Made by a program: the position numbers
IMG/VR virus record: IMGVR_UViG_2541047429_000046
Length of the DNA stretch: 12,211 nt
Direction: 5' to 3' (one strand)
Origin: a virus
Lineage: Duplodnaviria > Heunggongvirae > Uroviricota > Caudoviricetes
Shown: positions 6,001 to 9,000 of the stretch, piece after piece
Layout: each line of letters opens with the position of its first letter
Numbering within the stretch: the stretch's first letter is position 1

Positions 6001-9000
6001 AGCTGGAAATGATGGCGGCGAAAGCAGAAGCAAACGAGAGAGACCCGGCATGACAACAACAGAATGCATTTTTCTGGCAGCAGGCTTCATATTCTGTGTG
6101 CTTATGCTTGCCGACATGGGACTTGTTCAATGACACCTCAGCAGGAAAACGCCCTTCGCAGCATTGCCCGTCAGGCTAATTCTGAAATCAAAAAAGCCAG
6201 ACAGCAGTTTCCGGATAAAAACGTCGATGACATTTGCCGTAGCGTACTGAAGAAGCACCGCGAAACGGTAACGCTAATGGGATTCACACCGACTCATTTA
6301 AGTCTGGCGATCGGCATGTTAAACGGCGTCTTTAAGGAGCGATGAACATGAAAAGCAAAATCATCAGGGAGCTACAGGCTCCTTTTTTATTGTTCGCATT
6401 CACCCTCAAGCGTATTAACCAACAATTCAGGGATTAATGGAAGATGGCAGACATCATTGATTCAGCATCAGAAATTGAAGAATTACAGCGCAATACAGCA
6501 ATAAAAATGCGTCGCCTGAACTACCAGACTGTATCCGCAACTCATTGTTGTGAGTGTGGCGATCCGATAGATGAACGAAGACGCCTGGCAGTTCAGGGTT
6601 GTCGGACTTGTGCAAGTTGCCAGGAGGATCTGGAGCTTATCAGTAAACAGAGAGGTTCGAAGTGAGCGAAATTAATTATCAGGCACTGCGTGAAAAGGCA
6701 GAGAAAGCAACTAAAGGAAGCTACATCGTAGGGCATACATCTGTTAACCAGCACGGCAATTTAACAGGAGTTTTTGTTTGCCAAAAATGGAAAGGAGAAC
6801 CCGGTGGTGTGATTGCGGAATGTCATGTTAACTGCCTGGTTGAAACAGATGTTCAGGCTTATGCAAACGCTGAATTTATTGCTGCCTTTAATCCAAATGT
6901 TGCGCTGGCGCTTCTGGATGAACGGGAAAGAAACCAGCAATACATCAAACGCCGCGACCAGGAGAACGAGGAGATTGCGCTTACGGTTGGGAAGCTGCGT
7001 GTTGAGCTTGAAGCAGCAAAATCAAAACTCAACGAGCAGCGTGAATATTACGAGGGAGTAATCGCGGATGGAAGTAAGCGCATAGCAGAACTGGAAAAAC
7101 AATGCGCCGAATGGGAGCGAAAAGCATTAAGCAACTTTGAAGAGTGTGCTGCGATGGCTGAACGTATCGAAGAGATGCAGACAAAATCTGCACCAGATTC
7201 GTTTGGCATCATCGGTGAAAATATTCGAACACAGGACAATCGAATAACGTCAGATCCCATGTTTTGTGTGTATCAAAAGCGCGAAATCGCTGTTGATGCT
7301 GATTATGACCATGACCGGATTGTCTGGGTTGACGAAGATGGCAATGAAGCCAATAAACGCCATAGTCGTCGTCTCGAGCTACTTCATGAAAACTTTCGAG
7401 AGCCACCAGAAAAATGGCGGCGCGTTGCTGTGAAAGATATTGATGAATTCGTTACCTGCTGTTTCACCGAACAGGGTTGTAAAGACTACCTGGCAGTCAA
7501 TGGTCACAATCTTCGCTTGCCATTTATATATGTAAAAAGCGGTTTCAGGAACGCTGAATATATCGGCATAAGAAACTGGCTTGCTGGCATTCGCATCAAA
7601 GGAGAGTGATATGGCGTTAACACACCGCGAACTCTGTCAGATTGCGTACAAGTTCCTTAAGCGCAACGGTTTCAAGGTTTGTTTTCATGACCGCTTTATA
7701 GCTGTAACCAGTACCGGAGAACAGCCAGATGCTATGGGATTCAGAAATTCAGCATCATGCCTGATTGGCGAAATGTTCTCGTGCTGACTTGTTGGCAGAT
7801 AGAAAAAAGCGTTTTCGTAAAAATCCGTCTCTTGGAATGGGCGACTGGCGATTCTTTATTAGTGAGCCGGGAATTATTTCAATTGAGGATTTACCACCTG
7901 GCTGGGGATTACTTCACGTTGTTAACGGAAGAGTACGGAAAGTACATGGGTGGCCCAAGGGTAATTGCTGTTGGGGTAATCCTGACGATAAGCCATTTAC
8001 TGGAAATAAGCAGGTTGAATGCGATTACATGTTGTCTGCATTAAGGCGCATGGAGTTGAGAGGGCACCTTAATGAAATATATGACGGTGTAATTGTTAAT
8101 AAGAAAGAAGGAAACGCGGCATGACCACTATTACCGACAAAGAACTGATTAAAGAAATCAAAGAGCGCATAGGCAGCTTGGACGTTCGAGACAATATTGA
8201 GCGCCGTGCTTATGAAATTGCACTGGCATCGCTGGAAGCAGAACCGATAGCGTGGGAATGCGGTGAAAACATAATCCTGTTTAACCCTGACACAGTTGAA
8301 GCATACGCAAAACGTGCGGAAATATCACCTAAACCACTATTCTCCGCGCCGCCAGCGCTGGTAGTGCCTGATAAGTTGCCGCGTGAATACAGAAACGGTT
8401 GGCCTCTTGCGTATAGTGATTATGCTGAAGGCTGGAACGACTGCCGCGAAGCCATGCTTCAGGGAGATAAATCATGATTAATCGTATCAAGCTGGAGCAC
8501 ATCCTCGAATATGCCAGGCAGCAGAGGCATATTGGTCAGCATTGTAAAATTCCACCAGGAGATATGGTTGAAATCATGGAGATTGCCATGCGCAAGGCTG
8601 GCAACTCTCCGGTAACTCCGGATGGTTGGATAAGCTGTAGTGAGCGAATGCCGAACGATAAACAGTATGTTTGGTGTTGGGGGAAGTCTTACGGCTGGAC
8701 TGAGTGCGATACCTTCGAAGGGTATTACGATTGTTCGAGAAACAAATGGTGGGCAGTTACTGACAATGGGGAAGAACCGGCATCGAAAGTAACCCACTGG
8801 ATGCCGCTACCGGAGCCGCCGCAGGAGGTGAAATGATGAATTGGCCTGAAGCATTCACCGCAGTTGGAGTTGCAATAGCGGTGGCATTTATTCTGTATTC
8901 GCTTTTCCGCTGGGGATAAAGGAATGTTCGCTCTGATTCAACGTGGTCAGATATACACGGACAGAGCCGGATACCCTGTGGTGATTACTCGCAGTACTCA

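Follow-up and report, generated by a model that had tools for sequence, protein, structure and literature searches.

The two-frame open reading frame at positions 7611 to 8124 of the window is very probably a recently inactivated pseudogene of a 171-aa PD-(D/E)xK enzyme, which belongs to a sister branch of the MmcB-like proteins. In the window, that is the whole 12,211-nt stretch of Caudoviricetes DNA that was analysed (IMG/VR record IMGVR_UViG_2541047429_000046), this gene lies among the accessory genes of the early-left exo-xis region of a lambdoid Stx prophage of E. coli O157:H7. For the split frame the original prediction had offered a genuine inactivating frameshift, a sequencing error at a homopolymer or two small adjacent genes, and our results favour the first over the other two. 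The accompanying suggestion of an inactivated phage nuclease among accessory genes is supported as well, by the conserved D...ExK motif and by the placement of the family in the PD-(D/E)xK superfamily.

Coordinates of the features are collected in Table 1. As originally proposed, a Shine-Dalgarno-led frame of 58 codons begins at ATG 7611 and is closed by TGA 7785-7787, and the +1 frame runs without a stop from TTG 7765 as far as TGA 8122-8124. The Shine-Dalgarno sequence is followed by TGA 7607-7609, the end of the upstream Ea22-like gene (ORF 6662-7609). Translation of the first frame gives MALTHRELCQ...QPDAMGFRNSASCLIGEMFSC, in which residues 1-52 are native and are followed by the out-of-frame tail GEMFSC; referred to the model of the intact protein, the native part comprises helix 1, strands 1-2 and part of strand 3, with D40 encoded at 7728-7730. 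The expected PD element ahead of an E/K pair was found as well, since P39-D40 (7725-7730) stands 13 residues ahead of the E-x-K position. The C-terminal remainder corresponds to native residues 54-171. Its frame is closed by TGA 7762-7764 directly before TTG 7765, for which inspection of the sequence revealed no Shine-Dalgarno, and its stop codon overlaps the ATG 8121 of the next gene (ATGA 8121-8124). Both frames overlap by 23 nt (7765-7787). The pseudogene has 514 bp and its intact counterpart 516 bp. A third-frame ORF of 95 codons starting with ATG (7757-8044) is also open across the pseudogene; no homology supports it, and it has probably arisen by chance.

Table 1 Features of the pseudogene and of its surroundings in the window
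Feature	Position	Strand	Remarks
Q	373-1146	-	inverted block
LpxR gene	1537-2496	+	
Ser/Thr phosphatase	2708-3373	-	inverted block
NinG	3370-3993	-	inverted block
Shine-Dalgarno AGGAG	7600-7604	+	6 nt 5' of ATG 7611; read from the sequence
Whole pseudogene	7611-8124	+	very probably a frameshifted copy of the 171-aa MmcB-like PD-(D/E)xK nuclease gene; phage alignment
N-terminal fragment ORF, 58 aa	7611-7787	+	translation
Lesion site	7765-7767	+	AGA to T in the Glu53 codon; alignment columns 156-158 and junction 40-mer/42-mer searches
C-terminal remainder, +1 frame, 119 codons	7765-8124	+	translation, ORF list, phrog_9263 match
IS629/IS1203, 1310 bp	9471-10780	-	inserted in xis ORF 9323-9706 relative to VT1-Sakai
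IS629/IS1203 orfB	9513-10403	-	
IS629/IS1203 orfA	10400-10726	-	

The lesion was defined by alignment with the corresponding genes of phage 1717 (516 bp), P7 (516 bp), Stx2a_WGPS6 (514 bp) and phage 2851 (511 bp). The intact CTGAT-AGA-GGCG is changed in the window to CTGAT-T-GGCG at 7765/7766, with a net loss of 2 bases, and this is the sole difference from the gene of phage 1717. As the pseudogene is otherwise identical to the latter, its inactivation is therefore recent. The change destroys the Glu53 codon within the D40...E53-x-K55 motif and throws Lys55 together with the remaining 116 residues out of frame. The junction had been located at a short A-run, which was not borne out: the run at 7771-7773, in GCGAAATG, does not differ between intact and broken alleles, and the lesion lies upstream of it. 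A single-step progenitor, ATT-GAG, which would arise by synonymous ATA to ATT change before deletion of GA, was not found among complete E. coli genomes, so either the lesion is a complex event or the intermediate allele has not yet been sampled.

The intact gene belongs to a large family. The 171-aa products of phage 1717 (ACI43103) and P7 (Upf89.0) are identical, each read in one frame of 516 bp, and hundreds of enterobacterial prophages likewise have the gene as a single ORF. A word-indexed search returned 324 close relatives, among the matches listed mostly enterobacterial and of about 160-180 aa, in agreement with the expectation of single ORFs of about 170 aa, and an exhaustive search of representatives at 50% identity gave 2,533 clusters at E ≤ 0.001, mostly of about 150-200 aa. 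Across relatives of 33-68% identity residues D40, D60, G78, R81, W99 and E137 are invariant, while E37, P39, E53, K55 and S57, among others, are shared by at least 90% of the sequences, which gives the family pattern E-x-P-D ... L-I-E-x-K-x-S-R-x-D-F-L-x-D. The intact alleles are 95-99% identical to that of phage 1717, and their differences are mostly synonymous (synonymous to other 16:5, 14:5, 13:4, 10:2 and 4:0), therefore the intact copies are under purifying selection. The genomic neighbourhoods of three distant relatives consist of small early phage genes in arrays, and no partner is conserved among them. Nor did the longer relatives reveal a consistent fusion partner, being mostly read-throughs (Ea22-like, DUF551, dATP/dGTP pyrophosphohydrolase) and in one case TniB-like.

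The assignment to nucleases was based on structure prediction and on profile comparison. The AlphaFold2 model of the intact protein (mean pLDDT 83.7, pTM 0.78) contains helix 5-18, strands 22-25, 41-45 and 48-54, helix 58-64 and strand 80-85, and this predicted order of elements is that of the alpha-beta-beta-beta-alpha-beta restriction-endonuclease-like core. In the model D40 is located just before strand 2 and E53 within strand 3, with K55 after it. The PD-(D/E)xK motif is conserved in the intact homologs and destroyed in the window copy, which has lost the codon of E53 and no longer reads K55 in frame. Fold matches include AF2093, SdaI, AF1548, PaqCI, Can2, NucS, FokI, VRR-NUC and Hjc, almost all of them PD-(D/E)xK proteins. 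Several phage proteins named MmcB-like were matched by Foldseek among viral models; against the PDB the same program gave weak matches, none at E ≤ 0.001, and missed 3dnx. The family profile does match 3dnx, with E 5.5e-4 and the motifs aligned, and all relatives of the matched 3dnx segment carry PF06319 (MmcB-like). In hhalign the family and these PF06319-annotated relatives were aligned with 97.2% probability and E 3.9e-11, with D, ExK and SRxDF in register, over 58 columns, the MmcB-like side consisting of N-terminal fragments retrieved with a 52-aa piece of 3dnx.

No model of Pfam, NCBIfam or PADLOC reached its threshold with the intact protein or with either fragment, and a single-sequence search of the PDB returned chance matches alone. 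For PF06319, with a cut-off of 22 bits, 12 of the 40 relatives match weakly (best 21.0 bits, E 2.9e-4) and the query itself does not. Because profiles and motifs align, yet members score below the cut-offs, we regard the family as a phage-borne sister branch of the MmcB-like group within the PD-(D/E)xK superfamily rather than as a Pfam-defined member. The fold-level similarity to PD-(D/E)xK nucleases, on which the original reading had depended, was thereby upheld. Conservation and the model together point to D40, E53 and K55 as catalytic candidates. By analogy with MmcB and Hjc the intact protein would most likely be a Mg2+-dependent, structure- or damage-specific DNA endonuclease.

Distribution of the broken allele was examined with a 40-mer spanning the junction, for which a match is possible only where the lesion is present, by megablast against 5,426 complete E. 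coli genomes. The allele was found in 215 of them, in 254 places, all chromosomal and not more than two per genome; the serotypes named for the carriers, among the matches listed, are all O157:H7. A 42-mer of the intact junction matched 273 genomes, in plasmids as well as in chromosomes. VT1-Sakai, YYZ-2008, vB_EcoS_phi330 and Stx2a_WGPS6 also carry the broken allele. The prophages that carry this allele differ in integrase and attachment site: in strain TR01 it lies beside sbcB, in the window together with a yehV-type integrase. This fits spread by recombination among co-resident lambdoid prophages. The mutation is real and heritable, and both descent and recombination between Stx prophages have spread it.

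Other parts of the window bear rearrangements of their own. Gene bet breaks off at about 4360, where it meets head-to-head an inverted nin-Q-LpxR block whose nin and Q genes are on the minus strand, and window 1-4400 lacks the immunity and replication region; E. coli strain 7784 has the same bet junction. The ends of the IS629/IS1203 element are TGAACCGCCCC...GGGGCGGTTCA, its 4-bp duplication is GTAG (9467-9470 and 10781-10784), and with its ALIL pseudoknot at 10329-10445 (Rfam, 121.5 bits) the element provides a genuine case of programmed frameshifting within the window. The downstream 118-aa gene (8121-8477, H0067 of VT1-Sakai), which has no Pfam match, is intact in the window; phages 1717 and 2851 have it split in two, and in Stx2a_WGPS6 it carries a pseudogene flag. 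Neighbouring accessory genes are therefore broken in differing combinations across Stx phages. The pseudogene fits the general decay pattern of such an Stx-type prophage segment.

Beyond simple decay, a broader reading would see in the intact gene a very widespread, phage-specific clade of MmcB-like nucleases, with 2,533 clusters at 50% identity and covered by no curated family model. We think it unlikely that this widespread MmcB-like clade acts on damaged or branched phage DNA or on host defences, with the losses in O157:H7 reflecting a cost to the lysogen. If it were so, the substrates during SOS-triggered induction could be phage DNA that is crosslinked, damaged in other ways or branched, and repeated loss in O157:H7 Stx prophages would mean cost and not neutral decay. 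Stx prophages are commonly induced with mitomycin C. A still smaller probability is given to adaptive loss as such, by selection in O157:H7 against a nuclease harmful to the lysogen or by a stub that gained function. In its favour, the codon hit is precisely that of the catalytic Glu, the allele is common, in as many as two prophages per genome, and the gene has been truncated independently: in phage 2851 a separate 5-bp deletion in the same nuclease gene (locus 1712-2222, alignment columns 403-407) leads to an annotated 134-aa product, and other truncated versions of 110-144 aa are common in the protein database. However, clonal expansion of O157:H7 and inter-prophage recombination account for the frequency without selection, the neighbours are decaying as well (IS element in xis, truncated bet), and phages with either allele have been isolated as phages.

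Two genuine small genes, adjacent or overlapping, of 58 aa and about 111-119 aa, constitute a very improbable reading, despite the database entries that speak for it: RefSeq lists the 58-aa ORF as protein WP_001356547.1, gene callers give a 111-aa C-terminal product, P0061, with 645 member sequences, and in PHROGs, where the intact protein is placed in families 9263 and 631 of unknown function, a separate family, phrog_16308, was built from the 58-aa piece. Both fragments match one and the same 171-aa family, phrog_9263, with E 1.6e-25 and, for the C-terminal piece, 2.5e-90, a similarity far beyond chance. When 30 close and 40 distant members were aligned, every full-length sequence read through the break point in one frame, and division into two genes at these boundaries, proposed earlier as one of the options, is refuted by these single-ORF homologs. 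Moreover, the break falls inside strand 3 of one compact domain and splits the catalytic motif, and TTG 7765 is not preceded by a Shine-Dalgarno.

A programmed +1 ribosomal frameshift restoring the full-length product is even less credible. The 23-nt overlap with the second frame in +1 would be suitable for it, but the homologs are single-frame and need none, no slippery or prfB-like site was seen within the overlap, and the RNA of 7755-7860 folds no better than its shuffles (z = +1.0). No Rfam element was found at the site, the sole Rfam match of the window being the pseudoknot of the IS element, and a trans-frame product would still be devoid of E53 or K55. Least of all, with practically negligible probability, can the split be a homopolymer sequencing or assembly error in a gene actually intact in the organism: short indels are frequent assembly errors and the A-run lies close by, but this run is unchanged, the lesion replaces three bases by one and lies in no homopolymer, and an inherited mutation is indicated because the same allele is shared by the 215 genomes, from many laboratories and platforms, and by several independently sequenced Stx phages, including the Sanger-era VT1-Sakai.

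For the recently inactivated nuclease gene the course of events may be outlined as follows. From its location downstream of bet/exo and of the Ea22-like gene the gene is presumably co-transcribed with them early in lytic growth, and the intact protein would be made early, beside the Red functions. With its net loss of 2 bases the AGA to T change in the Glu53 codon shifts the frame; translation from ATG 7611 would then yield the 58-aa stub without E53 and K55 and end at 7787, and with the remaining 119 codons out of frame no active nuclease would be expected. Reinitiation at TTG 7789, which is the gene callers' start for P0061, would yield a fragment lacking D40, E53 and K55. Owing to the premature stop at 7787, the ATGA coupling to the gene at 8121 is probably lost too.

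Database records of this locus turned out to be inverted in one respect. In four RefSeq E. coli genomes, including O26:H11 11368, the intact 516-bp gene (locus positions 1501-2016), which in all four copies translates uninterrupted to 171 aa, is annotated as a 179-nt 'hypothetical protein, frameshifted', and in some of these copies a separate C-terminal ORF is annotated as well. The annotated 179 nt are two bases more than the 177-nt stub ORF, and from this correspondence we infer that the 58-aa WP_001356547.1 serves as the reference. It is thus apparently against the O157 stub that intact copies are called frameshifted, and this annotation ought to be corrected. PHROG 9263/631 (P7 Upf89.0), labelled (conserved) hypothetical in almost all of the records examined, can now be described as MmcB-like PD-(D/E)xK nuclease. 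None of the database records examined states the product encoded by the gene, and a text search of the exo-xis modelling paper (PMC8614690) for nuclease- or resolvase-type terms found nothing. The new content is modest, consisting of a family assignment for a previously unnamed intact family and of the annotation inversion. The biological weight of one dead accessory gene in a decaying Stx prophage is small, and phages carrying the dead allele have still been isolated as phages.

The closest known system is MmcB of Caulobacter, described as an SOS-regulated PD-(D/E)XK endonuclease which protects against mitomycin C and cisplatin (PMC9578287), a role known for the Caulobacter protein only. According to the model, the phage family shares the overall structure of MmcB-like proteins (PF06319/DUF1052; SPO1766, 3dnx), but it is not captured by the Pfam model, it has C-terminal-half motifs of its own (GMGDWR, GWGLL, NKQxE), and it is found among phage early accessory genes, whereas the MmcB-like gene is chromosomal and SOS-regulated; in addition, the window copy is inactivated. 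The similarity to Hjc (PF01870), YraN/UPF0102 and AHJR-like models stays below the curated cut-offs: for PF01870 the best E among the 40 relatives was 1.3e-4, and the individual scores seen were 14.7-17.7 bits against a cut-off of 21.1 bits. In the predicted structure the likeness to Hjc-type minimal nucleases is also much weaker than that to 3dnx. In lambdoid phages the junction-resolving role is already filled by NinG/Rap or RusA. As for the fate of the gene, it resembles other frameshifted accessory genes of O157:H7 Stx prophages. The locus is left unannotated in the VT1-Sakai record and is labelled 'hypothetical protein (pseudogene)' in Stx2a_WGPS6 (NC_049945), and the copy described here is an ordinary, already flagged pseudogene, an instance of ordinary prophage gene decay.
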